Of a stretch of DNA of 64,000 nucleotides, positions 25,276-52,902 are shown in pieces. Made by a program: the position numbers and the translations under genes. Location of the stretch: NCBI GenBank assembly GCA_965279165.1, contig OZ257140.1, positions 166,244 through 230,243 on the forward strand. Direction: 5' to 3'. The notes beneath the pieces were generated by a model. It saw only the letters and a list, made by a program, of their open reading frames with translations. It did not search any database and was not told the origin of the DNA. This stretch comes from Bacteroidia bacterium. Its GTDB lineage: Bacteria > Bacteroidota > Bacteroidia > UKL13-3. Position 1 is the stretch's first letter; the number at the start of each line of letters is the position of its first letter.

Positions 25276-27735
25276 TTGACGGATTCACTTGCCATATTTG
25301 TTCATGTAATTTTGCCATTGCCATTGCCAAAATTATACACCTACCGTGTTCCGAAGGATATGGAGAACAAGGTTTCGCGTGGCAAGCGTGTGGTGGTTCA
25401 ATTTGGAAAGAAAAAATTATATGCAGGGATTGTGCGGGATATGCAGGACTCCCCTCCTTCCGGATATGAAGCAAAATATATTCTGGATGTATTGGATGAA
25501 TTTCCATTGGTATCGGATGAAATGCTGCATTTTTGGGACTGGATTAGCAGTTATTATATGTGTTCGGTAGGTGACGTAATGCAGGCCGCCTTACCGGCTG
25601 CTTTTAAGCCCGAAAGTGAAACATCGGTATCCTTGCATCCCGAATTTGATTTACAGGATACGGCAATATTAGGCGACCAAGAGTACTTAGTAGTGGAAGC
25701 CCTTACCAAGCAAGAAGTTTTGCGTATTGAAGAATTGATGGAGATAACGCAACTGAAAAATGTGTTTCCCATGTTAAAGTCGCTGTTTCAAAAAGGGGCA
25801 ATTTTAATGCAAGAAGACTTAAAGCAATTGTATAAACCTAAATTTATTACCTGTATTCGGTTAACAGAATCCTATAAAGAACCTGCTGAACAGGAGAAAT
25901 TATTTAGCTTGTTAGAGAAAAAAACAGCCCAGATAAATTTGCTGATGGCGTATTTGGTTTTGAAAAATGAGCAACTTCATGTCGAGAAAAACACTTTAAT
26001 ACAAAGAAGTCAGTCGACCGACAGTCCGTTAAAAACATTGGTAACCAAAGGGGTTTTTGAACTTTATTCACTTCAAGTAGATCGGTTGCAAACCGAAGAA
26101 ACCCCAACAGATACCTTCACCTTAAACGAAGGACAATTGCAAGCCGTGAACCAAATTAAGGAACAATTTACCAAACAGGAAGTTGTGTTGTTACATGGTA
26201 TAACATCCAGTGGCAAAACCCATATTTATGTTAAATTGATTGAAGAGCAGATTGCACTTGGCAAGCAAGTATTGTTTTTATTACCTGAGATTGCACTCAC
26301 TTCACAAATTATATTCCGATTACGGAAATATTTTGGAGATAATGCAATTGCCTTCCATTCCCGATTTTCACAAAATGAGCGGGTAGAATTGTGGCATAAG
26401 GTTAAATCCAACGAGGTAAAAGTTATTATCGGTGCACGTTCAGCTGTGTTTTTACCATTTGAAAATCTTGGGTTGGTAATAGTAGACGAAGAACATGAAA
26501 CTTCTTATAAACAACACGATCCATCTCCACGTTACCATGCACGAGATGCTGCCATTTATCTGGCATACCAACGAAAATGCAAAACATTGTTAGGCTCTGC
26601 CACGCCATCCTTCGAAAGCTATTATAATGCGATGCAAGGAAAATATGGTTTCATCCACCTCTCTCAACGTTATGGCGACATAGAACCTCCCCAAATCGAA
26701 ACAGCAAATATTGCAGAAGAAACCCGGGTTAAAACCATGTATGGGCATCTTACTTCTGTATTGCACGAACGAATTAAAACTGCATTGGACAAAAACGAAC
26801 AAGTTATCTTGTTTCAGAATCGTCGCGGATATGCGCCCATCTTAGAATGTTTGCAATGCCACCATGTGCCGAAATGTAAAAATTGCGATATCAGTTTAAC
26901 CTACCATAAATACAACGACTTATTAAAATGTCATTATTGCGGGTATTCGGTATTGCGGATGAAAAACTGTGTTGCCTGTGGTTCACACGACTTAAATTTA
27001 AAAGGAATTGGCACAGAAAAAATTGAAGATGAATTACAAATATTTTTCCCGGAAGCAAGGATAGCTCGTTTGGATTTGGATTCGGCAAAAGGGAAAAATG
27101 GTCATTTCGAAATCATTCGAGGTTTTGAATCTCATGAATCGGATATTTTAGTGGGTACGCAAATGTTGAGTAAAGGACTTGATTTTGGCAATGTATCGGT
27201 TGTCGGCATTATCAATGCCGATCAGATGTTGTATTACCCTGATTTCAGGGCATACGAAAGGGCATTTCAGTTACTTACCCAAGTGGGAGGACGAGCAGGC
27301 AGAAAGAACAAACAAGGCAAAGTAATTATACAAACTTCGGTACCAAACCACCATGTAATTCAAGAAGTGATTCAACATCGGTATGATGTTTTGTATACCA
27401 ATACCATCGAAGAAAGAAAGCAATTTTATTATCCTCCGTATTCGCGGCTTATTAAAATAATAATCAAACACAAAGACATGCAATTGGCACATCAGGCTGC
27501 ATTTGATGTGTACCAAGGAGTTTTTAAACGCATGGGCGAACACCTTGTTGGTCCGGAGGCACCAACCGTTTCGCGGATAAAAAATTATTATATCCAGGAG
27601 ATTTTGGTTAAAATAGATCGGGAAAGCAAATACTTGCTTGCTTCCAAACAATTTATTGCCGGATGCATTCGCACCACTTTACAAAACGAACGGTTTAAGA
27701 AAGCGTATATTTATATGGATGTGGATCCGGTGTAG
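25276..27735 (+). CDS. priA: Primosomal protein N' (replication restart helicase)
   Basis: N-terminal 3'-binding domain (PLPLPKLYTYRVP). Helicase motifs: Walker A GITSSGKT, DEEH. Cys-rich zinc-binding insert (CxxC x4). Confidence 0.93.
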   Translation: MTDSLAIFVHVILPLPLPKLYTYRVPKDMENKVSRGKRVVVQFGKKKLYAGIVRDMQDSPPSGYEAKYILDVLDEFPLVSDEMLHFWDWISSYYMCSVGDVMQAALPAAFKPESETSVSLHPEFDLQDTAILGDQEYLVVEALTKQEVLRIEELMEITQLKNVFPMLKSLFQKGAILMQEDLKQLYKPKFITCIRLTESYKEPAEQEKLFSLLEKKTAQINLLMAYLVLKNEQLHVEKNTLIQRSQSTDSPLKTLVTKGVFELYSLQVDRLQTEETPTDTFTLNEGQLQAVNQIKEQFTKQEVVLLHGITSSGKTHIYVKLIEEQIALGKQVLFLLPEIALTSQIIFRLRKYFGDNAIAFHSRFSQNERVELWHKVKSNEVKVIIGARSAVFLPFENLGLVIVDEEHETSYKQHDPSPRYHARDAAIYLAYQRKCKTLLGSATPSFESYYNAMQGKYGFIHLSQRYGDIEPPQIETANIAEETRVKTMYGHLTSVLHERIKTALDKNEQVILFQNRRGYAPILECLQCHHVPKCKNCDISLTYHKYNDLLKCHYCGYSVLRMKNCVACGSHDLNLKGIGTEKIEDELQIFFPEARIARLDLDSAKGKNGHFEIIRGFESHESDILVGTQMLSKGLDFGNVSVVGIINADQMLYYPDFRAYERAFQLLTQVGGRAGRKNKQGKVIIQTSVPNHHVIQEVIQHRYDVLYTNTIEERKQFYYPPYSRLIKIIIKHKDMQLAHQAAFDVYQGVFKRMGEHLVGPEAPTVSRIKNYYIQEILVKIDRESKYLLASKQFIAGCIRTTLQNERFKKAYIYMDVDPV

Positions 27736-28107
27736 TACTTAGAGTTTTAGTACTAAGTGTTTTAGTATTTAAGTTGTGAGGGGAGCTTTCGGTTTCTTAA
27801 TAATGCTAATTTCAAGAATGGTGTTGAGGTCGCAGAAAATTTTGTAAACTGATTTCCAATGGAGAGTACCAGCATATATTAAAAATCCCGTCAGGGATTA
27901 AATATCGGTAGATTAAAAAGCAAAAGGATCGAATCCCGTTAGGGATTCAACATGGTGACGCGATAAAAGTTGTGTCGCAGGAAATTACACGTAAATTATC
28001 AATCCTTTCAAATAATAATGACCAAATACCAATTAATTCTAATTTGTAAAAACAAGGATTTTTTATTGGCGCCACTTAGTACTTAAACACCCAGCACTAA
28101 AACACTA
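27733..28107. repeat. MITE-like intergenic element bounded by imperfect inverted repeats (GTTTTAGTACTAAGTG ... CACTTAGTACTTAAAC) with internal AATCCCGTYAGGGATT hairpins
   Basis: Termini at 27733-27773 and 28072-28107 are near reverse complements. There are two AATCCC-GTYA-GGGATT hairpins at about 27893-27915 and 27925-27947. No ORF. Confidence 0.35.
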
Positions 28108-28193
28108 TCTCACTCAAACCTCAAATGCTTCACACTTTTACCTGAATCCCTAAGTTCGCAGAGGGAGTCAATGCCAATGCTGCGGTGTTTTAG
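28108..28193 (+). repeat. Dispersed element copy A (CTCACTCAAACCTCAAATGCTT ... TCAATGCCAATGCTNNGGTGTTTTA) with a central hairpin
   Basis: Shares both ends (22-26 bp each) with copy B at 29969-30055. The central parts differ but both fold (TCCCT...AGGGA here). Confidence 0.8.
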
Positions 28194-28401
28194 TTCATCT
28201 TAAATTAAAAAATTGGTATTCAAAATTTCAATATCAATTGATATTTATCTTGAATTCGATAAGGTTACAAATAATTCATCATAACAACTAGTAATTTGCC
28301 TCTTAAGTTTTGATATCCAATTTAGCATTTTACCTAAACACACTTTAATAAACGCCTTAAAAAAACTATAAATTGTCTATATTTGAGAAACCAATACTAA
28401 T

Positions 28402-28641
28402 ATGACCACTACCATTCTCAAAAACGAAATAACAAAAGCGCTAAGTGACATTAACGACAAGTCATTTTTAGAAGGACTGTATACTATAATTAATGCACAT
28501 GCAGATAAGTTAGCATTTGAACTGAGTGACGAAAATTGGCGCGAAATTGAGGGCAGGAAACGAGATTACAAATCTGGAAAATTGAAAGGATTAACAATGG
28601 TAGATGTTCGCAAGAAGGTAATGAAAAAACTTGCTACATGA
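28402..28641 (+). CDS. Putative antitoxin (addiction-module component, ParE-partner family)
   Basis: 79 aa. Ends ...RKRDYKSGKLKGLTMVDVRKKV, typical of the small antitoxins paired with ParE/RelE toxins. 4-bp overlap with the downstream toxin gene. Confidence 0.6.
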   Translation: MTTTILKNEITKALSDINDKSFLEGLYTIINAHADKLAFELSDENWREIEGRKRDYKSGKLKGLTMVDVRKKVMKKLAT

Positions 28642-28940
28642 AATGTCGTGTCATTGTTCTTGAGCCTGCCGCGGAGGAGCTTGTTGATGCTGCAATGTAT
28701 TACGACTCGAAGCAGACCGGTTTGGGGATTGCATTATTAGAAGAATGGGATGAATCGCTTATTCAGATTCAACGATCACCAGAAGGATATCAAAAGAAAA
28801 AGAAGAATTTTCGCCAGGCTCGATTAAACCGATTTCCATATCTGATTATTTTTGAAATTGAAGGTTCGGATATTTTTATTAACTCTTTTATTGATGCTCG
28901 AAGACATCCAAATAAACGCTACGCAAAAAAGAAGAAATAA
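28638..28940 (+). CDS. Type II toxin-antitoxin system RelE/ParE family toxin
   Basis: 100 aa. Motif FPYLIIFEIEGSDIFINSFIDARRHP matches the ParE/RelE core. Confidence 0.7.
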   Translation: MKCRVIVLEPAAEELVDAAMYYDSKQTGLGIALLEEWDESLIQIQRSPEGYQKKKKNFRQARLNRFPYLIIFEIEGSDIFINSFIDARRHPNKRYAKKKK

Positions 28941-29089
28941 TCTTGGAATTAATATGGTTGCTGAATAACTTCAACACACAATAAGCAGCAAATTACGGTA
29001 CGATTCAAATACATCAAGATTCATCCATCATAGTTTTAGAAGGAGGTTTGTAACATTCAACTACATACAAATCCTCGTGTGAAAATTGA

Positions 29090-29722
29090 TTACTGTTTTA
29101 ACCATATTTCATTAGAATTGAATTTAACTTTTAATATTCCATACATAGGATTGTATAATAAAGAAGGAAGACTATCCTGTCCATCACCAAAAAGAGTTAG
29201 TCCATAGTACAATTTACCATTAATGCTAACACTATCATTGAAATCCAATGAATCACTAATTCCAGCCAAAATATAACCATCAAATAATAAATAATCATTC
29301 ACTTTAATATCTATTGCAGCAAAATAATTCCCATTCGAATAATACCCAACTGGTATATAAATTTTATATTCCAACATGTTTAATGAATGTTTAATATCTG
29401 CCTTAAAGGAATTTCTAATATTTTCATAATAATGTTCCGGTCCTTTACATTCGGGATAGATACCTGTTGTTTCGATATAATATTCATAGTATTTATACTT
29501 GTCTTTGCCAATTAATATTGCTGTATCTCCATTTGTACTAACATAAGTAAGCGTATCTTTTCCTAAAAAGGATATTAAACTTTTAGACTTCTCTGAAATA
29601 TTATAATAAGTAGGTGGAGAATAATAATCATCACAATCAACCTTAGATTCAGTAATACAAGAACTGGTATTAATCAATACAAATAAAGCCATAACAATCT
29701 GTTTGGTCAGTGGTGATTTCAT
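29090..29722 (-). CDS. Hypothetical lipoprotein
   Basis: Start chosen at MKSPLTKQIVMALFVLINTSSC (signal peptide plus lipobox Cys). Tyr/Asn-rich. No recognisable domain. Confidence 0.5.
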   Translation of the reverse strand: MKSPLTKQIVMALFVLINTSSCITESKVDCDDYYSPPTYYNISEKSKSLISFLGKDTLTYVSTNGDTAILIGKDKYKYYEYYIETTGIYPECKGPEHYYENIRNSFKADIKHSLNMLEYKIYIPVGYYSNGNYFAAIDIKVNDYLLFDGYILAGISDSLDFNDSVSINGKLYYGLTLFGDGQDSLPSLLYNPMYGILKVKFNSNEIWLKQ

Positions 29723-29890
29723 CACGTAATTTTTTGTAATTTTTAAAGTAAAGGTTTCAAACCATTTTTCAAAATCCTGGGTAATAATACCATTAAGTAT
29801 ACCTATCAAAATTAATTATTCTAGCAAATTTTTTATTTAAAAAAACAGATCCAAGAAAGAGACAATATCAATGATATTCATTTAACGAGT

Positions 29891-29968
29891 CACTTCAACA
29901 CATTAACACTTCAACACCTTAACACTTCAACACTCGTCCACCGTAGCATTTGCGAAGGTGGGCAACAC
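29891..29968. repeat. Tandem CACTTCAACAC 11-mers followed by a conserved 38-bp core (ACTCGTCCACCGTAGCATTTGCGAAGGTGGGCAACAC)
   Basis: The core reappears reverse-complemented at 57013-57050, next to GTGTTGAGGTGTTAAA tandem units. Confidence 0.85.
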
Positions 29969-30055
29969 CTCACTCAAACCTCAAATGCTTTACGCTCTCG
30001 CCGGAGTCGCGAAGCTCGCGAAGTGAATCAATGCCAATGCTAAGGTGTTTTAATA
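29969..30055 (+). repeat. Dispersed element copy B (same family as 28108-28193)
   Basis: Conserved ends CTCACTCAAACCTCAAATGCTTTAC and ATCAATGCCAATGCTAAGGTGTTTTA. Central TCGCGA-AGC-TCGCGA hairpin. It overlaps the last 20 codons of the minus-strand nucleoside phosphorylase gene. Confidence 0.8.
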
Positions 30056-30743
30056 CAAATTTTTCGGTTACCGTTTTATCGCTTTTCGAAGTCTTCACTC
30101 CTTCCGGAATCATCGGATTATCGCTTACCAATAACAATGCTCCTTTAGGAATTCCATTGACAAAACCAACGGTAAAAATGGTGGCTGTTTCCATGTCGAT
30201 AGCTAGTGCCCTTAATTTTTTCAGATAGGTTTTAAATTCTTCATCGTGTTCCCAAACCCTGCGATTAGTAGTATATACGGTACCAGTCCAATAATCGGTT
30301 TTATATTTTACGATGGTCGACGAAACAGCTTTTTGTAAACGAAACGATGGCAATGCCGGGACTTCCGGAACCATATAATCGTCGCTGGTACCTTCTCCTC
30401 TGATAGCTGCAATAGGCAATATCATGTCACCTAGTTTGGTTATTTTTTTCAGTCCGCCACATTTACCCAAAAACAAAACTGCCTCAGGAGTAATTGCCAA
30501 TAACAAATCCATGCAAGTGGCTGCCATGGCGCTTCCCATTCCAAAATTAATAATGGTAATACCTTCGTGGGTGGCAGTTTGCATTGGCTTGTCGCGCCCC
30601 ATTACAGGCACATTAAATTTGTTTGCGAAAAGTTCTACATATTGAATAAAATTGGTTAGTAAGATATATTTACCAAACGATTTCAAGGGTATTCCGGTGT
30701 ATCGAGGTAACCAGTCTTTTACAATTTCTTCTTTGCTTATCAT
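29970..30743 (-). CDS. Nucleoside phosphorylase superfamily protein (short AMP nucleosidase-like)
   Basis: PNP/UDP phosphorylase fold pattern (GMGSAMAAT, DMETA). The C-terminal 20 aa are encoded inside repeat copy B. Confidence 0.65.
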   Translation of the reverse strand: MISKEEIVKDWLPRYTGIPLKSFGKYILLTNFIQYVELFANKFNVPVMGRDKPMQTATHEGITIINFGMGSAMAATCMDLLLAITPEAVLFLGKCGGLKKITKLGDMILPIAAIRGEGTSDDYMVPEVPALPSFRLQKAVSSTIVKYKTDYWTGTVYTTNRRVWEHDEEFKTYLKKLRALAIDMETATIFTVGFVNGIPKGALLLVSDNPMIPEGVKTSKSDKTVTEKFVLKHLSIGIDSLRELRDSGESVKHLRFE

Positions 30744-30773
30744 AATCCCTAAGATACAAATTAGATTTCACAA

Positions 30774-30802
30774 ATAAAAAAAGCAGCCCTTAAGCTGCTC
30801 TT
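30774..30802 (-). terminator. Rho-independent terminator of T9SS paralogue 1
   Basis: AGCAGC-CCTTA-GCTGCT hairpin flanked by an A7 run, which gives T7 on the minus strand. Confidence 0.6.
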
Positions 30803-30822
30803 TCGTTTCTTTAGTTTTGACT

Positions 30823-32124
30823 TTATTCAATCACTATTTTTCGAATCACATGATCTTCCTCTAATTGTATATGGGCAAAATAAATTCCTTTATTTAATGC
30901 GGAAACAGGAATTTTAGTTTGGTTCTTGAAATTCTCATCCATGGTTAGAACCAATTTACCGGTGATATCCATTAATTGAATGGAAGAAATACGTTTCGTT
31001 TTGTCGGTTAATTCAATTTGCAAAATATCACAAACCGGATTAGGATAGATTTGTATGGAAGCATCTGCATGTAAGGATTCTTCAAGTCCATTAAACTCAT
31101 TAAATAGGATTCTTTTGTCGGGAATAATGCTCCATTCATTGTTGATAAATGGATATAAATATCCTAGTGCTGCTTCATCTCCGGCATCATATAAAATCAT
31201 TGTTTTATAAGTATATTTCCAGTTATCATTTAACCATTCCATGGTTTGAATTTCAGATAATTTATTGGCCAATGTGTAAGTATAAATTTCATTTGAAACC
31301 GGTTTAAATTCAACACTGGTTCCATTCACCACCGTTAACTCATAATGAATATGCTCGATAATATTGTTGTTCGAATCGTATGCAAATGTATCTGCAGAGG
31401 AAGGGGCAAATTCTCCCAAGTCCGAATCAAAATAAAGGTTATATCGATACATTAAATTATTGTTATAGTAGGTAAAATAAGTTTTGGTAATGGTATCCTT
31501 TGGAGCGTTTGGATCTGTGTTAATCCAGATTAATGCGATTAAATCTCCATTTACATCATAGCTGTATGTTCCAATTGTTGGATAAATATTTTGTTCAAAG
31601 TACATGGTATCGGCAATGCGTTTACCGTTTACATCGTAAGCTATAAAATATTTGAGGTAATCCTCATAATTATTGGATGTAACCGGTTTAGCCGATTTAT
31701 TGATAACTGCAACCGGACGGCCATTGGCATCGTAAGTAAATGCATAGGTATATTTATTTTTTACCGAAAATCCGGGATACGTATAGGCAACCTCTTCGTA
31801 CACCATATCGATATTATTCTGGTTGTTTAGGATAAAGCTATCGTTTTCCAATAGAAAATCCTTCCATTTGTTATCCGACCAATTTTCGATTCTTTTTTGT
31901 TTGAAATAGCCGGGTACCTGCGAACGAACAAAAGAGCTTTTATCTTGGTTAAGCCAATTTACTGCATTGGCAGGATCCGAAATTTGGGTGAGCATGTAGG
32001 GATTAGTTTGTTGCAGGTATTCTAATCCGGTTGGAGGTAATTCTGTAATAGAAGGAATAATTGATTTTTGGGCAAAGCCATTAATCGCACTTGCAATTAA
32101 TAAGCTGAATACTAATTTTTTCAT
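30823..32124 (-). CDS. T9SS type-A C-terminal-domain secreted protein with YD-like repeats (paralogue 1)
   Basis: Signal peptide. Repeated YDANGR / YDVNGK / YDSNNN motifs. C-terminal about 80 aa IQIYPNPVCDILQIEL...GIYFAHIQLEED...IVIE match the Por-secretion CTD. Confidence 0.75.
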   Translation of the reverse strand: MKKLVFSLLIASAINGFAQKSIIPSITELPPTGLEYLQQTNPYMLTQISDPANAVNWLNQDKSSFVRSQVPGYFKQKRIENWSDNKWKDFLLENDSFILNNQNNIDMVYEEVAYTYPGFSVKNKYTYAFTYDANGRPVAVINKSAKPVTSNNYEDYLKYFIAYDVNGKRIADTMYFEQNIYPTIGTYSYDVNGDLIALIWINTDPNAPKDTITKTYFTYYNNNLMYRYNLYFDSDLGEFAPSSADTFAYDSNNNIIEHIHYELTVVNGTSVEFKPVSNEIYTYTLANKLSEIQTMEWLNDNWKYTYKTMILYDAGDEAALGYLYPFINNEWSIIPDKRILFNEFNGLEESLHADASIQIYPNPVCDILQIELTDKTKRISSIQLMDITGKLVLTMDENFKNQTKIPVSALNKGIYFAHIQLEEDHVIRKIVIE

Positions 32125-32220
32125 GGTTGTTTAAGCGTTTAGTTAGCTTAATGACAAGATGAAAACTACTTAGGTTGCCTGTATTCTTAGAATAAACTTT
32201 AAAGGTAAAATGAGGTGATG

Positions 32221-32272
32221 ATTGGATGAATAAATGAGTAAATATGTAAATGAGTAAATGAGTAAATGTGGT
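32221..32272. repeat. Tandem 7-8-mer repeat (GTAAATGA/GTAAATAT), 5 units
   Basis: Direct reading. Lies in the promoter region of T9SS paralogue 1. Confidence 0.8.
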
Positions 32273-32537
32273 AACGTCGCGAAGCATGTCGATTGGTATT
32301 TTTACCACAGAGACACGAAGACACAGATTTCGAATTGTCAAATGACCACTGACTACTGACGATTCTTTTTAGCCACAGATTTCACAGATGACACAGATTT
32401 AAAAACCCCAGAGGGGTGACATTATTGTAGAAAAAAAATGTGTGTCGAAAACAGAAGCCTGTAAGGGTGACATTATTGTTTGATTTTTATGATCACAAAG
32501 TTCAGCGGTCAATTGGTTAATTCATCAATCTCCATTC

Positions 32538-32570
32538 AAAAAAAAAGCAGCCCGAAAGCTGCCTTTTTCC
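32538..32570 (-). terminator. Rho-independent terminator of T9SS paralogue 2
   Basis: A9 run, then GCAGCC-CGAAA-GCTGCC hairpin, then T-rich. Gives a T9 tail on the minus strand. Confidence 0.65.
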
Positions 32571-32588
32571 TACGTATAGATTGAACCC

Positions 32589-33893
32589 TTATTCTATTGC
32601 AATTTTACGGGTAAGGTATTGGTCTCCGTAAAACAGGCGAACAAAATAAATGCCTTTATTTAAATCCGTTGTAGGGATCGTAATTTCTGTCTTCGAATCC
32701 TGCATATTTATATGTAACACTTCAGCACCGCTTATATCCATGATTTGAACAGCAGTAACGCGAGTAGATTTGTCGGATGATTGGATATGCAACATATCGT
32801 TTGTCGGGTTTGGATACAATAGAAATAAATCGTCGGCTGCCAAAGCTTCTTTTACTCCGGTAAATTCATTAAACAAAATACGTTGGTTTGGCACCACACT
32901 CCACACATTATTTTCGAATGGATACACGTAACCAAGACTTGGTTCATCGCTGCTGTTATACAGAATATTTGATTTGCGCACATACTTCCACATATCATCT
33001 ATCCATTCTTGGGTTTGCATTTCGATTAATTTATTGGTAGTTGAATACGTGTAAAAGTCCTTGATATATGGCCTGAATTCAACACTTGTTCCATTGATAG
33101 AAAACAACACATATCGCGTAGTGGAGATAATACGGTTTTGAGCATCGTAAGTAAATGAATCGGCTGATTGGGGAGTATAGTCACCCAAGTCAGCATCATA
33201 ATACACATTATACGAAGCAGTCATATTATTACCGGCATACGTATAATAACTAATATTGGTGGTATCCTTTTCAGCAGCCGGATCGGTATCAATCCAAACA
33301 GATTGTATTAAATGGTTGTTGTTATCGTAGGTATATTTTGAAATATAGGGTGTGGTACTTTGTTCGTAATACATGGTATCGGAAATACGTTTGCCAGAGA
33401 TATCATAAGTAAGAAAATAAGTTACATAATCCACGTAATTTTCGGAGGTAACCGGACTGGCAGATTTCATTACAATTTTAATAGGTCGATTATTACTATC
33501 ATAGGTGAACTTATACCTATATTTATATTTACTGGCAAACCCTGGATAATTATATTCAATATTTTCAAATACCATATCAATTCGGTCCTGGTTATCGAGT
33601 ATGATACTATCATTTTGCACCACAAAATCTATCCATTCGGTAACATCCCAAGAAGAATTTCTTGTCTGTTTAAAATAACCGGGAACATGGGAACGAATAA
33701 AGGTGTTTTTCGATTGGTTTATCCAATTGCCGGCACTAACCGGGTCGGCATTTTGTGTGAGTATATAGGGATAAACGGAACGAAGATATAACCAACCGGA
33801 TTTAGGCTGGTCGACCACTTCCGGAATAATAGACTTTTGCGCATAGCCATAAATAGCGCATGCCATCATCATACCAAGTAATAATTTCTTCAT
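32589..33893 (-). CDS. T9SS type-A C-terminal-domain secreted protein with YD-like repeats (paralogue 2)
   Basis: Roughly 45-50% identical to 30823-32124 along the whole length. Same signal peptide and CTD architecture. Confidence 0.75.
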   Translation of the reverse strand: MKKLLLGMMMACAIYGYAQKSIIPEVVDQPKSGWLYLRSVYPYILTQNADPVSAGNWINQSKNTFIRSHVPGYFKQTRNSSWDVTEWIDFVVQNDSIILDNQDRIDMVFENIEYNYPGFASKYKYRYKFTYDSNNRPIKIVMKSASPVTSENYVDYVTYFLTYDISGKRISDTMYYEQSTTPYISKYTYDNNNHLIQSVWIDTDPAAEKDTTNISYYTYAGNNMTASYNVYYDADLGDYTPQSADSFTYDAQNRIISTTRYVLFSINGTSVEFRPYIKDFYTYSTTNKLIEMQTQEWIDDMWKYVRKSNILYNSSDEPSLGYVYPFENNVWSVVPNQRILFNEFTGVKEALAADDLFLLYPNPTNDMLHIQSSDKSTRVTAVQIMDISGAEVLHINMQDSKTEITIPTTDLNKGIYFVRLFYGDQYLTRKIAIE

Positions 33894-34027
33894 ATTGGTT
33901 AACGTTATATTTTTAAACTTAAGACAAAATTGTTAACGGGAAGGTTGCGTTTTTATTTCTTAAAATAATTGAACGGTGAAAAAAAGAGATTTGCGGATAT
34001 CTTTATTATAAGTGGAAAGAGAAGTGC

Positions 34028-34066: not shown

Positions 34067-34083
34067 AATTATTTTCAAGAAAA

Positions 34084-42613: not shown

Positions 42614-42615
42614 CA

Positions 42616-44193: not shown

Positions 44194-44253
44194 TTGAATA
44201 GAAGAATCTCGAATTGGGATTTGTTTCTCTGTAAAAATAATTGACACATAACG

Positions 44254-45600
44254 ATGTTTAAAAAAATACTTATTGCCAATAGAGGAGAAATAGCACTTCG
44301 TGTTATCCGAACGGCCAAGGAAATGGGAATAAAAACCGTTGCCGTTTACTCAACAGCAGATAAAGAAAGTTTACATGTACGTTTTGCGGATGAGGCAGTT
44401 TGTATAGGACCTCCACCCTCGCCGCAATCCTATCTCAATATGGCTAATATTATTGCCGCTGCCGAAATTACCAATGCAGACGCCATTCATCCGGGTTATG
44501 GATTTTTAAGTGAGAATGCAAAATTCTCACAAGTTTGTCGCGACCATGGTATTAAATTTATTGGTGCGTCGCCGGAAATGATCAATGCGATGGGTGATAA
44601 AGCCAATGCAAAAGCTACAATGAAACGTTCTGGTGTTCCTGTAATTCCGGGCTCTGAAGGATTATTGGAAAGTGCGGAAGAAGGTATCCGCTTGGCAGAA
44701 GGTATCGGTTATCCGGTTATCATCAAAGCAACGGCAGGTGGTGGCGGACGTGGAATGCGCATCATATGGAATGCCGAAGAGTTTGAGAAACATTGGGATT
44801 CGGCCCGTCAGGAATCGAAAGCTGCTTTCGGTAATGATGGCATGTATATGGAAAAATATGTGGAAGAACCACGTCATATCGAAATACAGTTAGCCGGCGA
44901 CCAATACGGCAATGTTTGTCATTTGAGCGAACGTGATTGTTCGATACAACGGAGACATCAAAAACTGGTTGAAGAAGCTCCTTCCCCATTTGTAACTCCT
45001 GAATTACGCGACAAAATGGGAGCTGCAGCCATTGCAGGTGCCAAAGCAATTAATTATGAAGGATTGGGTACGATAGAATTTTTGGTAGACAAACACCGTA
45101 ATTTCTATTTCATGGAAATGAATACCCGTATTCAGGTAGAACATCCGGTAACCGAAGAAGTAATCAATTATGATTTGGTTAAAGAACAGATTTTAATTGC
45201 GGCAGGTGTTCCAATTAGCGGTAGAAATTATCTCCCGGTGAAACACGCCATCGAATGTCGTATCAATGCCGAAGATCCTTTCAACAATTTCAGACCAACC
45301 CCAGGCAGGATAGATTATTTACATAAGCCAGGTGGACACGGTGTTCGTGTGGATACACATATATACGCAGGATATACCATTCCTTCGAATTACGATTCGA
45401 TGATTGCCAAACTGATTGTGTGTGCCCAAACCCGTGAAGAAGCCATTATTAAGATGGACCGTGCCTTAAGCGAATTCATTATTGAAGGTCCGGGAATTAA
45501 AACCACCATTCCATTACAAATTAAATTAATGCAAAACGAAGATTTTAAAGCCGGGAATTTTACAACGGCGTTTATGAATACGTTTGATATTAATAAATAG
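44254..45600 (+). CDS. accC: Acetyl-CoA carboxylase biotin carboxylase subunit
   Basis: ATP-grasp motifs. Canonical start [20 protein letters not shown]. Confidence 0.95.
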
Positions 45601-45650
<50 letters not shown>

Positions 45651-45701
45651 TGGTGTGCATTGGTGGCTGTTAAAACATAATTTGTTATCTGGTAACTTTA
45701 T

Positions 45702-46604: not shown

Positions 46605-46644
46605 CCCTTTTTCCAATTATCTTCGCACACTTTAAGAAAAATAC

Positions 46645-47406: not shown

Positions 47407-47428
47407 TATTCAGCGATTATCGCTACGC

Positions 47429-48136
47429 ATGAAAAAGGTAAATTTTACCGATTGGGGCTTGATCGATTATAAACAAGCCTGGGATAAACAGGAAGCTCTT
47501 TTTCAGGCAAAAACCAATTTAAAATTAGTTAACAGAAATCCGGAAACAATTCATCCCATATTACCTGTTAACGACCTTATTTTTTGCGAACATCCGCATG
47601 TATACACTTTGGGAAAAAGCGGTAAGAAAGAAAATTTACTGGTAAACGAACAACAACTCGAAGATTTAAATGCCACCTTCTACCCTATCAATCGTGGTGG
47701 CGATATCACTTACCATGGTCCTGGACAAATTGTAGGCTATCCAATTTTTGACCTGGAACAATTTTATACCGATATACACCGCTATTTAAGAACCCTTGAA
47801 GAAGCAATCATCCTAACCATTGCCGAATACGGAATAAAAGGAGAACGGTTAGAAGGTTATACAGGAGTTTGGCTGGATACACACGACGACACCAAAGCAC
47901 GTAAAATTTGTGCCATGGGAGTGCGATGCAGCCGTTGGGTAACCATGCATGGATTTGCTTTTAATGTGAATACCGATCTCTCCTATTTTAAACATATTGT
48001 ACCGTGTGGAATTGATGATAAAGCTGTGACTAGTATGCAGCACGAGTTAGGTAAAGAAATTTCTATGGAGGAAGTGAAACAGAAATTATTGGGGCATTTG
48101 ATGGAGTTGTTTGGAGGAGAATACCAATTGAAATAA
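47429..48136 (+). CDS. lipB: Lipoyl(octanoyl) transferase
   Basis: [12 protein letters not shown] motif and catalytic Cys/Lys region. Confidence 0.9.
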
Positions 48137-48153
48137 TATAAGTAAGATATTTG

Positions 48154-48440
48154 GATCTTGAGTTGCAAACTCAAGATAGCGGGGGCTTGGTTCTTGTGGT
48201 GTTTGGAGTTTAGTACGATTAGATTTTTTATAATAACGAGTTAAGTTTATCGGCAATAACACGTGTGTTGCTTAAACGAGGTACTTTGTTTTGTCCGCCT
48301 AGCTTACGAATTAATGGAGATAATCTAAGTTAGGTATTTGATCTTGAGTTGGAAACACAAGATAGCCGTGAGCTTACGAATTAATGGAGTATATTTATTA
48401 AAGTGATTTGATTGAAATTGAGTTACAAACACAAGATAGC
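48154..48440. repeat. Three copies of a hairpin-containing 27-bp repeat (GATCTTGAGTTGCAAACTCAAGATAGC and two variants) interleaved with AGCTTACGAATTAATGGAG x2
   Basis: Copies at 48154-48180 (perfect CTTGAGTT-GCAA-AACTCAAG hairpin), 48340-48366 and 48416-48440. Confidence 0.85.
48264..48304 (+). repeat. Left direct repeat of islet 2 (duplicate of GH3 gene 3' end)
   Basis: GTGTGTTGCTTAAACGAGGTACTTTGTTTTGTCCGCCTAGC. About 93% identical to 50147-50190. Its reverse complement encodes LGGQNKVPRLSNTR, matching the GH3 C-terminus. Confidence 0.85.
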
Positions 48441-48579
48441 ACAGGGCGGAGGTAAATAGCACATCACATTATATTTGATAATTTTCAGTTGTTTCATTAA
48501 AAATAAACAATAGTTTTACTTATCAGTTTTAACTTAATTTATCATAGTTTGTTCCTTAAAATAACTAATTATTTTTAAT

Positions 48580-49293
48580 ATGAAATTTATTAAAAGTTTA
48601 TTTAAACCAAAAAATATCTACTTCAGGATAAACATGGATATTATTGAGTTTCCTGAAGGCTGGACTCCTAAACTGGCAATACTTATTAGAAATTTGACCG
48701 AATTCGAAAAAAGAATTATTATTAATATACTCAGAATTTTACAAAGACACCTTGAACGACATTTTGTATTTTGGATGAAATTCGAATTTACAAGAATCAA
48801 GTTCAATAATGATCAATCCATTTTATTCAGAAGTTACTTTGAATTAATAATGATTGACTGGACGATAATAAGTTCTGAATTCACCAAAAGAGAAATTAGA
48901 TCTGAAGTGGGAAAATCGTTGTGGTGGATTCTATATTACTCATTTGATGGATATGACTCTATGTTATATTCTAAAAAAGTATTCAGGAACTATGAGGCAG
49001 CTTTTGAAGATAGAAGGCAACTTTATCCAGGAATATTAACGAAATTATTTAGTACTGAAAGTAGTCAAAATTTAAATTCATTAAAAATCCTTTATATTTT
49101 ATTAGTTGTGAATCCATTAGAAATTGACAAAGGTAACTTTGAAAACCAACCAAATGAACTTAAAGATCACCAAGATTTTAGTGAAATGGAAAATTGGTTC
49201 GAAAACAGATTGAATTTGTTAACTTTTGGACAAGTATTTGGAAAATCTTTAAATCACCTGAAGAGTGAAATAAATAAATTGCAATTTAAATAA
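48580..49293 (+). CDS. Hypothetical protein in AT-rich islet (237 aa)
   Basis: ORF in a segment of clearly lower GC than its surroundings. No recognisable domain. Contains RHLERH. Confidence 0.55.
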   Translation: MKFIKSLFKPKNIYFRINMDIIEFPEGWTPKLAILIRNLTEFEKRIIINILRILQRHLERHFVFWMKFEFTRIKFNNDQSILFRSYFELIMIDWTIISSEFTKREIRSEVGKSLWWILYYSFDGYDSMLYSKKVFRNYEAAFEDRRQLYPGILTKLFSTESSQNLNSLKILYILLVVNPLEIDKGNFENQPNELKDHQDFSEMENWFENRLNLLTFGQVFGKSLNHLKSEINKLQFK

Positions 49294-49388
49294 TAATGAA
49301 TCTGCTTTTCAATTAAGTTGTTCATTCAAGAAGGTTTGCCAATGATTTTTTTATTTGATAAATTCACAAAACAATTGAAATTCATATA

Positions 49389-49874
49389 ATGGGAAATTTT
49401 AAAGACTTAGAATCTGAGTTTATTGAACGGACATTGCGCCTTCTTTCACAGTATGAGGGTATAACTTACAAATACAAATTTGAAGAACAATTTAATCACA
49501 CTTTGCTTGTAAACTGTTTACTTGGATTAATTGTATTACCAAAAGAAAAGACTATTATTTATTTGCCAAATACAACCTGGAGTATGGAGTTGAAAACCAA
49601 AATGGGCATAGAAAATTCAACATTTAACAAAAATATCACTAATCTAAAAGATTTGATAATTGCATTACGACATACTGTTGCACACTTTGACATCACATTT
49701 GAATCAAAAAGTGATGAGTTTTTAATTGACTTTATAGTTTTTAAGGATAGAAAGAAAGGAAAAAACTATGTTGTCGCTTCCTTTGTACCATTAGAACTGA
49801 TTTGTTTTCTTCGATACTATGGTAATTGGTTAGTAAGTATAATTCGTGAACATCAAGGAAATATTAAATCTTAA
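49389..49874 (+). CDS. Hypothetical protein with HEPN-like Rx4H motif (161 aa)
   Basis: ALRHTVAHFD resembles the Rx4-6H motif of HEPN/Abi-type RNases. Small alpha-helical protein in the AT-rich islet. Confidence 0.5.
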   Translation: MGNFKDLESEFIERTLRLLSQYEGITYKYKFEEQFNHTLLVNCLLGLIVLPKEKTIIYLPNTTWSMELKTKMGIENSTFNKNITNLKDLIIALRHTVAHFDITFESKSDEFLIDFIVFKDRKKGKNYVVASFVPLELICFLRYYGNWLVSIIREHQGNIKS

Positions 49875-50106
49875 AATACAAATTGTTAAATAATTTAGTG
49901 AGATAAAGAAATACTTATATTTTTGTCACAAACTCATCTAGCTTAACGTAACTGTTTTTATTTCAGAGATTTTAAGACAGACTTCTATTTCGCCTATTGA
50001 TTGATAAAAGTCACTTTTTAACATCAAATTTTATCTAGGTATATATGTTGTTTAAATAACTAAAATTAATTTTAAGGTTGCGAGATAAAGTGTACATTAA
50101 ATACAT

Positions 50107-51603
50107 CTAATTTAAATAAGATTGGAGTTTATCTGCTATCGATCGTGTGTTGCTTAAACGCGGTACTTTGTTTTGTCCGCCGAGCTTTCCCTCCTGCTTC
50201 ATGTATTGAATAAATGTAGATTTCTGTAGTGACCTAATTTTTAATGGCTGTAGGATATTACCGGCAATTAAATCTTTGTAGTATATGTTTCGTTCTTGCA
50301 TTTTCACATCTACTTCCTTTGCGAATGAATGAATATCGTCGGGTTTGTTTTCAAATTCAACAAACCATTCGTGGTATGGTAAACCTCCCTCAGGTGGATT
50401 AACTTGTGGAGCAACAGTAAACTCTATAATATTGATTTTGTATTTATTTGCTACCGAAAGCAAGGCCTGTTCTACCTCTTCGCCGATTACATGTTCGCCG
50501 AATGCGGAAATAAAATGCTTGATTCGTCCGGTAACAACAATACGAGGCGGATTAAGCGAAACAAATTTAATGGTATCGCCAATACTGTAACCGAAGAGTC
50601 CGGCATTGGTATTCATGATAAGGGCATAATTACAATCCAGCTTTACTTCTCCAAGGTGTAACCGGGCAGGATTTGGGTTGAAATATTCTTCCGTAGGAAT
50701 GAATTCATAAAAGATGCCGTTGTTGGTCAACAGCAACAAACCCTTCTCTTCACGGGTATCCTGATAGGCAATAAATCCTTCGGAAGCCGGATAGGTTTCG
50801 AGGGTATCAATCCTGGTTCCTATGGCATTTTCGATCTTAGCCCGATAGGGTTCAAAATTTACCCCACCATACACAAAAAGTTTAAAGTTGGGAAAAACAT
50901 CCTTTATTTTCTTTCCAGTTAGTGAAGTTATTTTATCGAAATACATCTGCACCCAAGGCGGAATACCACTTATCAATGTCATGTTTTGGTGGATGGTTTC
51001 GTTTACCACCGCATCCACTTTTTCTTCCCAATCCTCGATACAATTTGTAGGAAACGAAGGCAACTGATTTCCTTTTAGGTAACCCGGCACATGGTGGTTT
51101 ACGATACCACTTAATCGTCCAACCGGAATACCATTTTTGGATTCCAATGCCGGACTACCGGATAAAAATATCAGTTTACCATTTAAAAAATCTGCTTTAC
51201 CGGTTTCGGCGATATATGCTAGCAAAGCGTTTCGAGCCGATTGAATATGAAACGGAATAGAATCCTTGGTGATAGGAATATATTTTACTCCGGAAGTAGT
51301 ACCTGAAGTCTTGCTCCAATAAGCCGGTTTGCCGGGCCAAAGGATATCCGCTTTGCCGGAAATTGCTTCATCGATATATGGTTTTAAATCTTCGTAATCA
51401 ATAACCGGGACTTGTTGTTTAAAATCATCATATGTTTTAATGGTTTGAAATGAATGATCGATTCCAAATTTTGTTTGAGAGGCAATGGCAACCAATTTAT
51501 GCATCCAATCCAATTGAAAGGAAACAGCTATGGCGCTTTGCCGTTTTACCTTGTTGGTTATAAAACGAGCAAATGGTATGGCCAGAATTGATTTTAAACC
51601 CAT
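50107..51603 (-). CDS. GH3 family (acyl-adenylate-forming, auxin-responsive-GH3-like) protein
   Basis: KTSGTTSG adenylation motif and overall GH3 architecture. Start at MGLKSIL. An alternative upstream Met lies at 51630. Confidence 0.8.
   Translation of the reverse strand: MGLKSILAIPFARFITNKVKRQSAIAVSFQLDWMHKLVAIASQTKFGIDHSFQTIKTYDDFKQQVPVIDYEDLKPYIDEAISGKADILWPGKPAYWSKTSGTTSGVKYIPITKDSIPFHIQSARNALLAYIAETGKADFLNGKLIFLSGSPALESKNGIPVGRLSGIVNHHVPGYLKGNQLPSFPTNCIEDWEEKVDAVVNETIHQNMTLISGIPPWVQMYFDKITSLTGKKIKDVFPNFKLFVYGGVNFEPYRAKIENAIGTRIDTLETYPASEGFIAYQDTREEKGLLLLTNNGIFYEFIPTEEYFNPNPARLHLGEVKLDCNYALIMNTNAGLFGYSIGDTIKFVSLNPPRIVVTGRIKHFISAFGEHVIGEEVEQALLSVANKYKINIIEFTVAPQVNPPEGGLPYHEWFVEFENKPDDIHSFAKEVDVKMQERNIYYKDLIAGNILQPLKIRSLQKSTFIQYMKQEGKLGGQNKVPRLSNTRSIADKLQSYLN
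50147..50190 (+). repeat. Right direct repeat of islet 2 (native 3' end of GH3 gene)
   Basis: CGTGTGTTGCTTAAACGCGGTACTTTGTTTTGTCCGCCGAGCTT overlaps the last 14 codons of the GH3 CDS. Confidence 0.85.
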
Positions 51604-51860
51604 AAAACAAAGGTGCAAATTGTGTATCAATATTTAACTATCGCTTTTTCGAAATAATTCAAATTTGATTGTTTGGGCTATTTTAGCTACTCAGGTTTAA
51701 GTACTAAATGTTCTGGTACTGTGTGTTTAGTTATCGTGTTGCATCAATTGCATTTACAAAGCATTATATGAGGGATATTTCGCCCTTTCAGGGCTTTGAA
51801 CTTCGGTTGTACTTTTTACATCCGGCTACACCGGATGTTTAGAAATGTCGCCCTAACAGG

Positions 51861-51905
51861 GCTGCATACGACTTGGTCTTTTATTACTGCCTAGAAAGTT
51901 TGGAT
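51861..51905 (+). repeat. Left direct repeat of islet 3
   Basis: GCTGCATACGACTTGGTCTTTTATTACTGC...CTAGAAAGTTTGGA. About 80% identical, with one indel, to 52848-52902. Confidence 0.7.
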
Positions 51906-52041
51906 ACAACGCCTTTAAGGGTTGCTAGGCGTCAACTTAAATACCTAACTATAAAATTAGTTTCCAAATATAGAAACTTTTATTACCTTTGTTTAAGACT
52001 ATGAATAAAATGTATGAATGAGATTCTTTGAAACGAGATTT

Positions 52042-52359
52042 ATGGAAGAAGCGAACGAGTTTATTTCGAAACTAGATAGAAAGTCAATTCGTAAGATTTT
52101 CTATAACATCGACCTTGCCGAACAAACCAATGATCCCAAATTGTTTAAAAAACTTCAAAACGATATCTGGGAACTTAGAACAAAATTTGGTGGACTACAG
52201 ATTCGGCTTTTAGCCTTCTGGGACAAGACAGACAATAAGAAAACACTGGTAATAGCGACACATGGCTTTGTGAAAAAGGTCGACAAAATTCCAGCTAATG
52301 AAATTGAAAGAGCAAGCAGACTTAGAGATAAATATTTTGAAAACAAACGTAAAGACTAA
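52042..52359 (+). CDS. Type II TA toxin, Gp49-like/HigB-RelE family
   Basis: IWELRTKFGGLQIRLLAFWDK...LVIATHGFVKK matches the phage Gp49-like RelE/HigB fold. Start chosen at MEEANEF. Confidence 0.65.
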   Translation: MEEANEFISKLDRKSIRKIFYNIDLAEQTNDPKLFKKLQNDIWELRTKFGGLQIRLLAFWDKTDNKKTLVIATHGFVKKVDKIPANEIERASRLRDKYFENKRKD

Positions 52360-52363
52360 TCAT

Positions 52364-52690
52364 ATGGCAACCAAAAAAATGAAGACTTATTCACTTGCCG
52401 AAATGAAAGACAAATTCATCGGTAAGGTTGGAACAACAGAACGTGACGATTATGAATACGAGCTTAGAATGGACGTTTTAGGAAAGATGATTAAAACTGC
52501 TAGACTAGAAAGACATTTGACACAAGAAGAACTTGGAAAATTAATTGGTGTTCAAAAAGCTCAAATATCCAAATTAGAAAGCAGTGCAAATAGCGCAACC
52601 ATTGATACAGTTATAAAAGTATTTAAAGCATTGAAAGCAGAAATCAACTTCAATGTCAAAATTGAAGACGACTATTTGACTCTTGCGTAA
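52364..52690 (+). CDS. HTH XRE-family antitoxin (HigA-like)
   Basis: HTH segment LTQEELGKLIGVQKAQISKLE. Lies immediately downstream of the toxin. Start chosen at MATKKMK. Confidence 0.65.
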   Translation: MATKKMKTYSLAEMKDKFIGKVGTTERDDYEYELRMDVLGKMIKTARLERHLTQEELGKLIGVQKAQISKLESSANSATIDTVIKVFKALKAEINFNVKIEDDYLTLA

Positions 52691-52847
52691 GAAAAGCCGA
52701 ACGCCTAACAGCAAGACAGCGCAATTTTTGCTATCTTTATGCAAAGCTACACTTTATGCAAAATGGAGCGAAAACAGCGGCTTGCAAAACGTTTAACATG
52801 GAATGTTATTCGTTTATATCGGATGCTTGCATTGGCGCCTTTACAGT

Positions 52848-52902
52848 GCTGTATACGACTTAGTCTTTTACTGCTGTTATATGGCAACCTAGAAGGTTTG
52901 GA
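52848..52902 (+). repeat. Right direct repeat of islet 3
   Basis: GCTGTATACGACTTAGTCTTTTACTGCTGTTATATGGCAACCTAGAAGGTTTGGA. Confidence 0.7.

Follow-up and report, generated by a model that had tools for sequence, protein, structure and literature searches.

Three small toxin–antitoxin and defence islets among core genes of a Bacteroidota chromosome: two beside duplicated gene ends and one resembling a stranded integron cassette

How do small toxin–antitoxin (TA) and defence genes come to stand between core genes of a bacterial chromosome with no recombinase gene beside them? The question is raised by a stretch of 64,000 nucleotides from a Bacteroidia bacterium (lineage UKL13-3; GCA_965279165.1, contig OZ257140.1, positions 166,244 to 230,243 of the forward strand), called the window below. 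The window is a stretch of core genes of a Bacteroidota chromosome, among them genes with sorting domains of the type IX secretion system (T9SS), SusC/D, the ATP synthase operon, genes of fatty-acid synthesis, priA, recA, lipB and miaA. It also holds three islets, which are bracketed by three pairs of direct repeats and all carry TA, HEPN or other defence cargo according to family matches (weak ones for islet 1). A sequence-only reading had recognised both features and had taken the islets for one family of small non-autonomous elements, each located at a gene 3′ end and sharing boundary motifs with the others. Our analysis supports the view that these are horizontally acquired micro-islets without an integrase, and the architecture is real and recurrent. 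However, it does not belong to a single family of elements, nor do the cited motifs mark its boundaries. The best explanation is that each of the three islets was brought in separately from another lineage and that they are not copies of one element: the inserts of islets 1 and 2 would each have arrived with a foreign version of the neighbouring gene's end, and islet 3 would be an integron-type cassette. We consider this anatomical part of the account highly probable.

The absence of a recombinase from the 64 kb, as claimed before, was borne out by two approaches. Pfam models run over the ~55 larger open reading frames (ORFs) of the window that were taken as genes, three of which had no family, detected no integrase or transposase, and tblastn with a Bacteroidota integrase, a DDE transposase and IntI1 as probes gave no match in the window. 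Likewise, no RNA gene was found as a target, either with Rfam at the gathering threshold over the whole window and at E <= 1 in the islet regions or with a tRNA/tmRNA scan. The GC content of islets 1, 2 and 3 is 0.31, 0.27 and 0.34, respectively, versus 0.38 for the window, so that islets 1 and 2 are clearly AT-rich. Their inserts are 1.8–1.9 kb long, and the insert of islet 1 begins 29 codons before the stop codon of an AMP nucleosidase gene (NCBIfam PRK07115, full-length match 1–257). Islet 1 and its surroundings are composed as follows:

25276–27735, plus strand: priA, the left core neighbour (Pfam PriA_3primeBD, DEAD, PriA_C)
27733–28108, no strand: presumed original intergenic DNA between priA and the AMP nucleosidase gene, outside the insert, with period-15 stop-rich repeats at both ends and the twin hairpins AATCCCGTYAGGGATT
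28109–28197, minus strand: displaced pseudo-copy of the AMP nucleosidase gene's 3′ end, with 28 in-frame codons and the stop codon (translation ELKHRSIGIDSLCELRDSGKSVKHLRFE, then stop)
28363–28941, plus strand: ParE-family TA module, with an antitoxin-like ORF (28402–28641) and the toxin (28638–28940) overlapping by 4 nt
29090–29809, minus strand: cargo ORF of 239 aa without a family in Pfam, NCBIfam or PADLOC
29880–29968, minus strand: hairpin CCACC..GGTGG and period-8 repeat (GTGTTGAA)n directly after the working stop codon, 88% identical to 56997–57092
29969–30057, minus strand: working 3′ end of the AMP nucleosidase gene (29970–30743), probably imported with the insert (translation VLKHLSIGIDSLRELRDSGESVKHLRFE, then stop)

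The insert of islet 2 begins 26 codons before the stop codon of a GH3-family gene and lies between this gene and lipB:

47429–48186, plus strand: lipB with its terminator hairpin at 48141–48186 (Pfam LplA-B_cat)
48225–48305, minus strand: displaced pseudo-copy of the GH3-family gene's 3′ end, with 25 codons and the stop codon (translation KLGGQNKVPRLSNTRVIADKLNSLL, then stop)
48301–48445, plus strand: two 70-nt tandem units, each consisting of AGCTTACGAATTAATGGAG and a diverged copy of the lipB stop/terminator region (48126–48188 versus 48313–48375, 83% identical)
48580–49293, plus strand: ORF of 237 aa, upstream partner of the HEPN gene, without a family match in Pfam, NCBIfam or PADLOC
49389–49874, plus strand: HEPN nuclease of the pEK499_p136 family (Pfam PF18736, E 1e-26)
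50107–50187, minus strand: working 3′ end of the GH3-family gene (50107–51630; translation KLGGQNKVPRLSNTRSIADKLQSYLN, then stop)

The repeats that bracket these two inserts are copies of the host gene ends themselves. In islet 1, 28109–28197 matches 29969–30057 over 89 nt at 80% identity; in islet 2, 48227–48305 matches 50111–50187 over 79 nt at 84%, with a looser match between 48220–48305 and 50102–50187. Similarity ends a few bases past the stop codon on one side and stops abruptly 29 and 26 codons into the gene on the other, and both displaced copies keep the reading frame and the stop codon. The differences between the copies are concentrated at silent positions. The two copies in islet 1 differ at 18 nucleotides, 12 of them third positions and four amino-acid changing (proportions of synonymous and non-synonymous differences, pS and pN, of 0.70 and 0.07), and those in islet 2 at nine nucleotides, of which seven are third positions and one changes an amino acid (pS 0.45, pN 0.05). 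Pooling of these two pairs with three cases from other genomes gave a pS of 0.486, a pN of 0.046 and a ratio of 0.095. Under neutral drift of one copy after a duplication, non-synonymous changes should make up about 66% of the total; only 23 of 85 changes are of this kind (P = 4e-13), and neutral drift of both copies is rejected even more clearly (P = 8e-25). Since divergence is dominated by synonymous changes, the two copies evolved as working gene ends in separate lineages before they were joined, and the insert came with its own version of the neighbouring gene's end. Both copies have thus spent nearly all of their divergence as functional gene ends in different lineages and were joined recently, and one of the two gene ends in islets 1 and 2 is shown to be foreign. 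Insertion of a transposon or a miniature inverted-repeat transposable element (MITE) was considered and rejected: the islet ends carry no inverted repeats, and the direct repeats are 79–113 nt long, 69–84% identical and synonymously diverged.

Mere coincidence, which the sequence-only reading had allowed for, is refuted because the arrangement recurs at different genes on contigs unrelated to the window. The ParE-like toxin of islet 1 has a single close relative (65% identity; locus L179, GCA_964392775.1), which belongs to a module flanked by a duplicated 3′ end, 173 nt long, of an RF-1-domain (arfB-like) gene, with a pS of 0.46 and a pN of 0.07. Its insert measures 871 bp, and no integrase was found in 12.3 kb. 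Here the pseudo-copy overlaps the stop codon of the next core gene and, because it abuts this gene with overlapping stops, is the resident's original end. The two ParE-like modules are 67% identical at the DNA level (5718–6304 of that locus and 28363–28941 of the window), and this homology is confined to the TA module; the same module at two target genes with homology limited to the module argues against a site-specific element with fixed ends. Furthermore, a higBA module is flanked by a duplicated gene end of 58 codons (L154; pS 0.43, pN 0.03) with one stop codon in the pseudo-copy, another higBA locus shows a duplicated 5′ end of trmD (L147), and at another locus (L061) repeats of 372 nt enclose 6 kb of T9SS cargo without TA genes. 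Repeat length varies between the cases and depends on how far away the stop codon lies. Such pairs of duplicated gene ends are sparse across 1.6 Mb of other Bacteroidota loci, and in the literature we found nothing specific on this architecture around TA loci.

The most elaborate case is an array downstream of mfd (L082, 4246–8042), which includes a HEPN pair and in which the mfd end is present three times (123 nt at 89% identity, pS 0.47, pN 0.02, and a 38-nt partial copy). Two more repeat pairs, both non-coding (one of 71 nt with 90% identity, the other of 44 nt with 80%), part the array into four small cassettes, and no integrase was found in its 12.5 kb. The repeats are interleaved, with the mfd end three times and the 44-nt and 71-nt hairpins twice each. 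This order gives the impression that a single variable locus had its alternative alleles placed one after another.

Which of the two gene ends is the imported one? GC content and GC content at third positions of the two repeat copies did not discriminate the native copy. However, since the pseudo-copy at the arfB-like gene is the original and the pseudo-end in islet 2 adjoins the terminator of lipB itself, the working ends of the AMP nucleosidase and GH3 genes would, on this reading, be the imported ones. In islet 2, diverged copies of the lipB stop/terminator region lie inside the islet by the far junction, the second at ~48401–48445, which suggests that the insert comprises the whole lipB–GH3 intergenic region of the donor.

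Relatives of the HEPN nuclease reach 79% identity, nearer than any relative of the core genes, and each has a different upstream partner; the 237-aa ORF showed no homology to any of these partners. The relatives are found in an integrative mobilisable element, a conjugative transposon and defence islands, next to genes for restriction-modification and PIN proteins, and on contigs that resemble phages. The cargo proteins, including that of islet 3, show higher identity to their foreign counterparts (79% for HEPN, 86% for HigB) than the core protein GH3 shows to its nearest relative (73%). For islet 1 the matches of the TA pair, a 79-aa antitoxin-like ORF and a 100-aa ParE-like ORF, are weak (ParE_toxin, E 0.009; TIGR02574, E 9e-4), and their relatives are annotated as ParE. 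No relatives of the 239-aa ORF were detected in a metagenome scan, and islet 1 gave no match as query in a plasmid search. The repeat with the hairpin CCACC..GGTGG, for which a scan of viral contigs yielded no match, also occurs elsewhere in the window: 29891–29983 and 56997–57092, which are 88% identical, follow the stop codons of two unrelated genes, for the AMP nucleosidase and for a MacB/FtsX permease. It consists of the hairpin GCCCACCTTCGCAAATGCTACGGTGG and (GTGTTGAR)n, and similarity begins ~14 nt inside the coding ends (...LRFE and ...LRYE before the stop). Because the insert carries a repeat 88% identical to another site of the window, we take its donor to be a related genome. Both gene-end copies of islet 1 also lie within closing stems on the minus strand (28086–28189 and 29913–30049; z −3.8 for the working copy), whose extensions differ and partly compensate (CCTTAGC/GTTAAGG versus CCGCAGCA/TGCTGGG).

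Islet 3 is of a different kind. The claim that each islet lies at a gene 3′ end fits islets 1 and 2 but not this one, which is located between two divergent genes, upstream of the start codon of GH3 (51630) and of a DUF6798 gene (53156):

51820–51923, plus strand: left repeat, non-coding, upstream of the GH3 start, ending in GGGTTG at the cassette junction
51924–52797, plus strand: predicted integron-type higBA cassette with higB at 52018–52359 and higA at about 52366–52690
52808–52919, plus strand: right repeat, non-coding, ending in CGGTTAA

Its TA pair consists of a Gp49/HigB toxin (E 1e-15) and an HTH_3 antitoxin, and its flanking repeats (51820–51920 versus 52808–52919) match over about 100 nt with an 11-nt indel at 69–82% identity. 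The sequence-only reading had suggested looking for a link to integrons or to CALIN (clusters of attC sites lacking an integron integrase), and for this islet the suggestion proved apt. A metagenome scan with its HigB yielded at least 421 relatives with 74–86% identity, of which 80 loci were kept. A module of ~760 bp, corresponding to ~51950 to ~52713 of the window, is common to all 80 except for early ends, which are mostly contig ends. Where the left end was uncut, 76 of 78 loci start at window positions 51931–51961, and alignments of the cassette start reach back to ~51924. In the related loci the module is bordered by attC sites: an R′′ site GCAYAAC directly follows the higA stop codon and an R′ site GTTRTGC directly precedes the conserved start GCGTCAGCTTAAA. 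An alignment of 11 of the 132-nt attC sites revealed a stem of 16 pairs formed over a long range, with compensatory changes in 11 pairs, and a covariance model built from it detected 88 sites in the 80 loci, in arrays spaced ~1 kb. All but one (87) are on the cassette strand, and the lone minus-strand match coincides with a plus-strand site. This model performs excellently on the metagenome arrays and is too family-specific to judge sites of the window. Xer/IntI-like recombinases lie beside three of the arrays, on the same strand as the cassettes (L104, 1620–2672; L126, 717–1856; L156, 2–691). They match TIGR02249 in two stretches only, as if they had no IntI-specific insert; with NF040815 (XerA / integron integrase, cut-off 220 bits) the first reaches the cut-off at 223.3 bits, and the second (213.1) and the truncated third (192.2) stay just below it.

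The same module is found on a plasmid of Riemerella anatipestifer (NZ_CP073240.1; L181, 8063–14826) in the array lnu(I)–higBA–blaOXA–tet(X)–estT, all on one strand, with GCACAAC...GTTGTGC attC sites on both sides of higBA, these being the junctions that were read. A TA cassette is embedded in a resistance cassette array of a Bacteroidota pathogen, and the chromosomal TA locus of the window is linked to a pool of integron cassettes that, on this plasmid, includes lnu(I), blaOXA and tet(X).

By homology to the cassettes of these attC arrays islet 3 belongs among the integron cassettes. Its 5′ boundary reads GCTAGGC followed by GCGTCAACTTAAA, a cassette start that occurs once in the window, and the R′ core is the complement of the islet's own R′′ except for a change of GTT to GCT. 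The R′′ site GCCTAAC at 52703–52709 stands in a conserved context, and an attC-like hairpin of 95 nt ends in the R′ site GTTTAAC (52791–52797). Boundary signatures of this type occur in the window only at islet 3. When the cassette is removed in silico, the reconstructed target ...AAGGGTTG joined to TTTAAC... contains GTT. Based on the preserved cassette start, R′′, 5′ R′ and hairpin, and on this target, islet 3 is read as a stranded integron cassette that an integron-type integrase would have delivered at some time, similar to a SALIN (a single attC site without an integron integrase); in agreement with this class and with CALIN, no tyrosine recombinase lies in the window. It would be stranded now, since no integrase lies nearby, the 5′ core has changed from GTT to GCT and the attC site is degenerate.

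Cassette insertion outside integrons, at attG sites, has been reported to follow a GWT consensus, which the GTT of the reconstructed target ...GGGTTG joined to TTTAAC... fits. Such insertions resemble islet 3 in several ways: a promoter-bearing higBA cassette with R′ at its 5′ end, R′′ (GCCTAAC) after the stop codon and an attC-like hairpin ending in GTT, and no integrase nearby. In contrast to the attG route, the attC site of islet 3 is degenerate, the 5′ core is GCT instead of GTT, and the host locus is a Bacteroidota chromosome. Moreover, the attG route does not yield flanking direct repeats of ~100 nt. These repeats end in GGTT at the junctions, fold as two small terminal hairpins and have no match to the attC model; they may represent a pre-existing tandem repeat or degenerate attC sites.

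How may the two gene-end islets have formed? We favour an insertion-duplication, in which a donor segment made up of the cargo and the donor's version of the core gene's 3′ end would have replaced the resident gene end from 29 (AMP nucleosidase) or 26 (GH3) codons before the stop codon, and the resident's original end would have remained as an in-frame pseudo-copy beyond the cargo. The donor would have been a related genome that already had the cargo at the same locus. Integration could have proceeded by RecA-type homologous pairing within the gene, which would serve as the anchor, and a far joint formed by short homology or illegitimately, that is, by homology-facilitated illegitimate recombination or additive integration, and a dedicated recombinase would not be needed. 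An anchor that is homologous but diverged is indeed present contiguous with the insert end, as working and displaced ends differ almost only at synonymous sites. The repeats would then be as long as the stretch between the far joint and the stop codon, and beyond the stop the two lineages would no longer align. A bias in cargo could also result: an insert flanked by repeats should easily be deleted via these repeats, and addiction modules resist such loss. Islet 3 would most simply have been inserted at the GTT of its reconstructed target, between two copies of a repeat of ~120 nt.

Additive integration was reportedly described by de Vries and Wackernagel in 2002 from natural transformation experiments. 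It is known mainly from laboratory crosses, and recipient DNA is usually deleted in the process. As in islets 1 and 2, foreign DNA from a related but diverged donor enters through one homologous anchor, without a recombinase and without defined ends. Unlike in the known cases, the far joint here lies inside the gene, the gene end is duplicated, and microhomology at the joint is only a candidate.

Several observations weigh against this account. Neither an empty site nor a donor was seen: the nearest relative of the window's GH3 gene is only 72–73% identical, and among 80 species-level GH3 loci scanned for empty sites and other cargo none had a duplicated end, an element or lipB synteny, these relatives being too distant. 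The pseudo-copies are intact in four of the five cases, which calls for very recent events or repeated refreshment. In islet 2 the far junction is present twice, in the 70-nt units that are 24% diverged, which is awkward for a single recent event, and the only candidate for microhomology at the far joint is AGCTT at 48301–48305. Site-specific 3′-end integration of an element that carries a replacement gene end would predict the same anatomy and the same synonymous pattern. Furthermore, both gene-end copies of islet 1 close together with the downstream GTGTT motif as palindromes (AACACC...GGTGTT), for which the favoured model gives no explanation. Regarding islet 3, the attC-like hairpin is weak: its free fold has a z of −0.9, and the model from the related attC sites gives it 9.5 bits (E 3.9). 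In a fold constrained at AAC/GTT, 22 of its first 30 nucleotides pair over a long range, and our two home-made attC detectors, based on arm complementarity and on constrained folding, were insensitive on positive controls or gave values within the shuffled range. In addition, the ~100-nt repeats that abut both junctions of islet 3 may be of either kind named above. For these reasons the whole account, including the mechanism, is offered tentatively, with a chance that we put somewhat short of even.

The main rival, which we take seriously and think rather unlikely, is that the islets are cis-mobilisable elements (CIMEs) or decayed integrative elements, i.e. remnants or satellites of integrase-bearing elements that target gene 3′ ends and bring a replacement end within their attP; on this view the repeats represent attL and attR, and an integrase encoded elsewhere could still mobilise the islets in trans. 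CIMEs are an established concept, and att-flanked remnants are known to target 3′ ends of protein-coding genes, such as those of the ICESt1/ICESt3 family at fda (PMC5704250, PMC6323972). A working end supplied by the element and a displaced original end are just what 3′-end integration produces, and our islets share with CIMEs the direct repeats at a gene 3′ end, the tandem accretion (seen at mfd) and a cargo of TA, HEPN and unassigned ORFs without recombination or transfer genes of its own. The repeats contain exact blocks of 16–22 nt, some of them by the gene-internal boundary, where the exact match is 9 nt in islet 1 and 5 nt in islet 2. Moreover, in an integrative mobilisable element (L085–L088) a relative of the HEPN gene comes immediately after a Bacteroidota tyrosine integrase, and another lies in a conjugative transposon (L089). 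On the other hand, the repeats of our cases are much longer than those of CIMEs (78–173 nt), only 80–89% identical and located at many unrelated targets; at least six of these (AMP nucleosidase, GH3, mfd, the arfB-like gene, the gene with the 58-codon repeat and the trmD 5′ end) would each require a specificity of its own. No cognate element with an integrase was found at any site examined, including the 64 kb of the window and the 12.5 kb and 12.3 kb around the mfd and arfB-like loci, and none of the 80 GH3 loci holds an element at that site. The ParE-like module sits at two targets with nothing conserved outside it, the insert at the arfB-like gene is only 871 bp long, and the non-coding repeat pairs of 44 and 71 nt in the mfd array behave alike. 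A close variant of the insertion-duplication dispenses with the integrase altogether and invokes Campbell-type circles: recombination between the repeats would excise the cargo with one repeat, and a single crossover in the gene end of a new host would rebuild the structure. This would account for a repeat whose extent is fixed and which moves together with the cargo, for divergence at synonymous sites only, for the absent recombinase and for tandem accretion, both at mfd and in the 70-nt units at 48301–48445, and recA is encoded in the window itself (16930–17982). We nevertheless consider it quite unlikely, given that 78–173 nt of homology at 80–89% identity are a poor substrate for RecA, that no evidence of circles or of a route for their transfer was found, and that the founding event at each new gene would need another mechanism.

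Could all three islets instead be integron-like, with the repeats as folded attC-like sites and an integron- or Xer-type integrase elsewhere in the genome, so that they form a dispersed CALIN? Islet 3 is an integron-type cassette by our reading, and the gene-end copies of islet 1 are bracketed by AAC...GTT closing stems. In addition, the best match of the attC covariance model in the window (48231–48335, minus strand; 15.5 bits, E 0.14; termini ACCTAAC...GTTATTA) overlaps the displaced GH3 end. Striking as its position is, this match is probably due to chance: its E-value is not significant, and the attC site of the true cassette itself scores only E 3.9 with this model. Since the gene-end copies of islet 2 and the mfd repeats lack palindromic structure (z >= 0) and only those of islet 1 fold, since the AACACC/GGTGTT closure can stem from an abundant GTGTT motif after stop codons, and since cassette-boundary signatures are found at islet 3 alone, we judge an integron origin of all three islets very unlikely. 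Sedentary chromosomal integrons are known to hold TA cassettes, such as higBA and parDE in the Vibrio superintegron, which are thought to stabilise the arrays. Like these, the islets represent TA modules over-represented as small stand-alone cassettes between repeats, for which a role against deletion is plausible. However, gene ends rather than attC sites delimit islets 1 and 2, and integron ancestry is seen in islet 3 only.

The single family proposed by the sequence-only reading, with shared boundary motifs (GTTTAAGTAC, ATCGTGTGTTGC and CCCT-n-AGGG hairpins) and one recombinase, could appeal to the TA or defence cargo and direct repeats in all three islets and to the two exact copies of GTTTAAGTAC versus 0.10 expected. 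These two copies, one at 28079 on the minus strand and one at 51695 (not 51698), both lie within a period-15 stop-rich tandem motif and outside the repeat-bounded inserts, and with one mismatch allowed there are six matches versus 5.2 expected. ATCGTGTKTTGC, also cited as shared, has a single match versus 0.6 expected, inside the GH3 coding sequence. The CCCT-n-AGGG hairpins turned out to be two unrelated pairs, AATCCCGTYAGGGATT at 27884/27931 and GCCCTnnnAGGGC at 51783/51850, and the stem at 28157 is weak and falls within the pseudo-coding gene end; overall the window contains 147 hairpins versus 135 ± 15 expected by chance. The motifs thus occur at chance level or in post-stop tandem repeats that are also found far from the islets, for example at 57010, and they stand at non-equivalent positions. 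Moreover, the islet ends are dissimilar, a sensitive self-BLAST detected no similarity among the interiors or ends of the three islets, and they share no termini: the repeats of islets 1 and 2 are host gene 3′ ends and islet 3 is of another kind. One element family is therefore highly improbable. Long target-site duplication through staggered breaks 80–170 nt apart, followed by divergence, would place direct repeats immediately beside the inserts, as observed. A copy released in this way should gain non-synonymous changes, with a pN/pS of at least 0.5 versus the 0.095 found (P = 4e-13), and this substitution pattern led us to reject it as scarcely conceivable.

If insertion-duplication or a related process is indeed at work, a duplicated gene end with pN far below pS would be a searchable signature for the entry of defence and addiction modules into core regions without mobile-element genes, and some core genes would be chimeric, with their last 25–60 codons from another lineage. 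If no dedicated recombinase is needed, surveys based on integrases would systematically miss such islets. A wider conjecture, which we think unlikely to hold in full, is that TA and defence micro-cassettes of Bacteroidota, and probably beyond, travel with a portable end of the neighbouring gene that serves as integration site in the next host, either free of a recombinase or dependent on one in trans; the synonymous-only duplicated end would be the scar, and repeated events would build arrays such as that at mfd without an integron.

Several further repeats were observed in the window. The 367 bp between the priA stop codon and the displaced AMP nucleosidase end (27733–28099) have 27-nt inverted ends that are 81% complementary, and the AATCCCGTYAGGGATT hairpins within lie 47 nt apart; the segment may represent an insert of MITE type or a pair of post-stop motifs that converge. 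Short-period tandem repeats are present at 25046–25155, 27733–27775, 29891–29934, 32226–32268, 45598–45642, 57050–57099 and 57134–57198, directly after stop codons or in intergenic regions. Their periods are 7, 8, 14–16 and 21, and their units are stop-rich (TAGGCAG, GTGTTGAA, CTTATAT); because tandem periods that are not multiples of three shift the frame, stops arise in all three frames. Words resembling GTGTTTTAGT are enriched (15 versus 6 expected). Furthermore, a tandem pair of paralogues (30776–32219 and 32540–33990) encodes proteins of ~433 aa each with a Por_Secre_tail (T9SS) domain; the genes have their own terminators and are 64% identical in DNA over 1.46 kb. Finally, ~800 bp of tandem repeats (54629–55414) with units of 58–76 nt and the palindrome CACGAGCGTGACGCTCGCGAG are located between the DUF6798 gene and an ORF of 126 aa.

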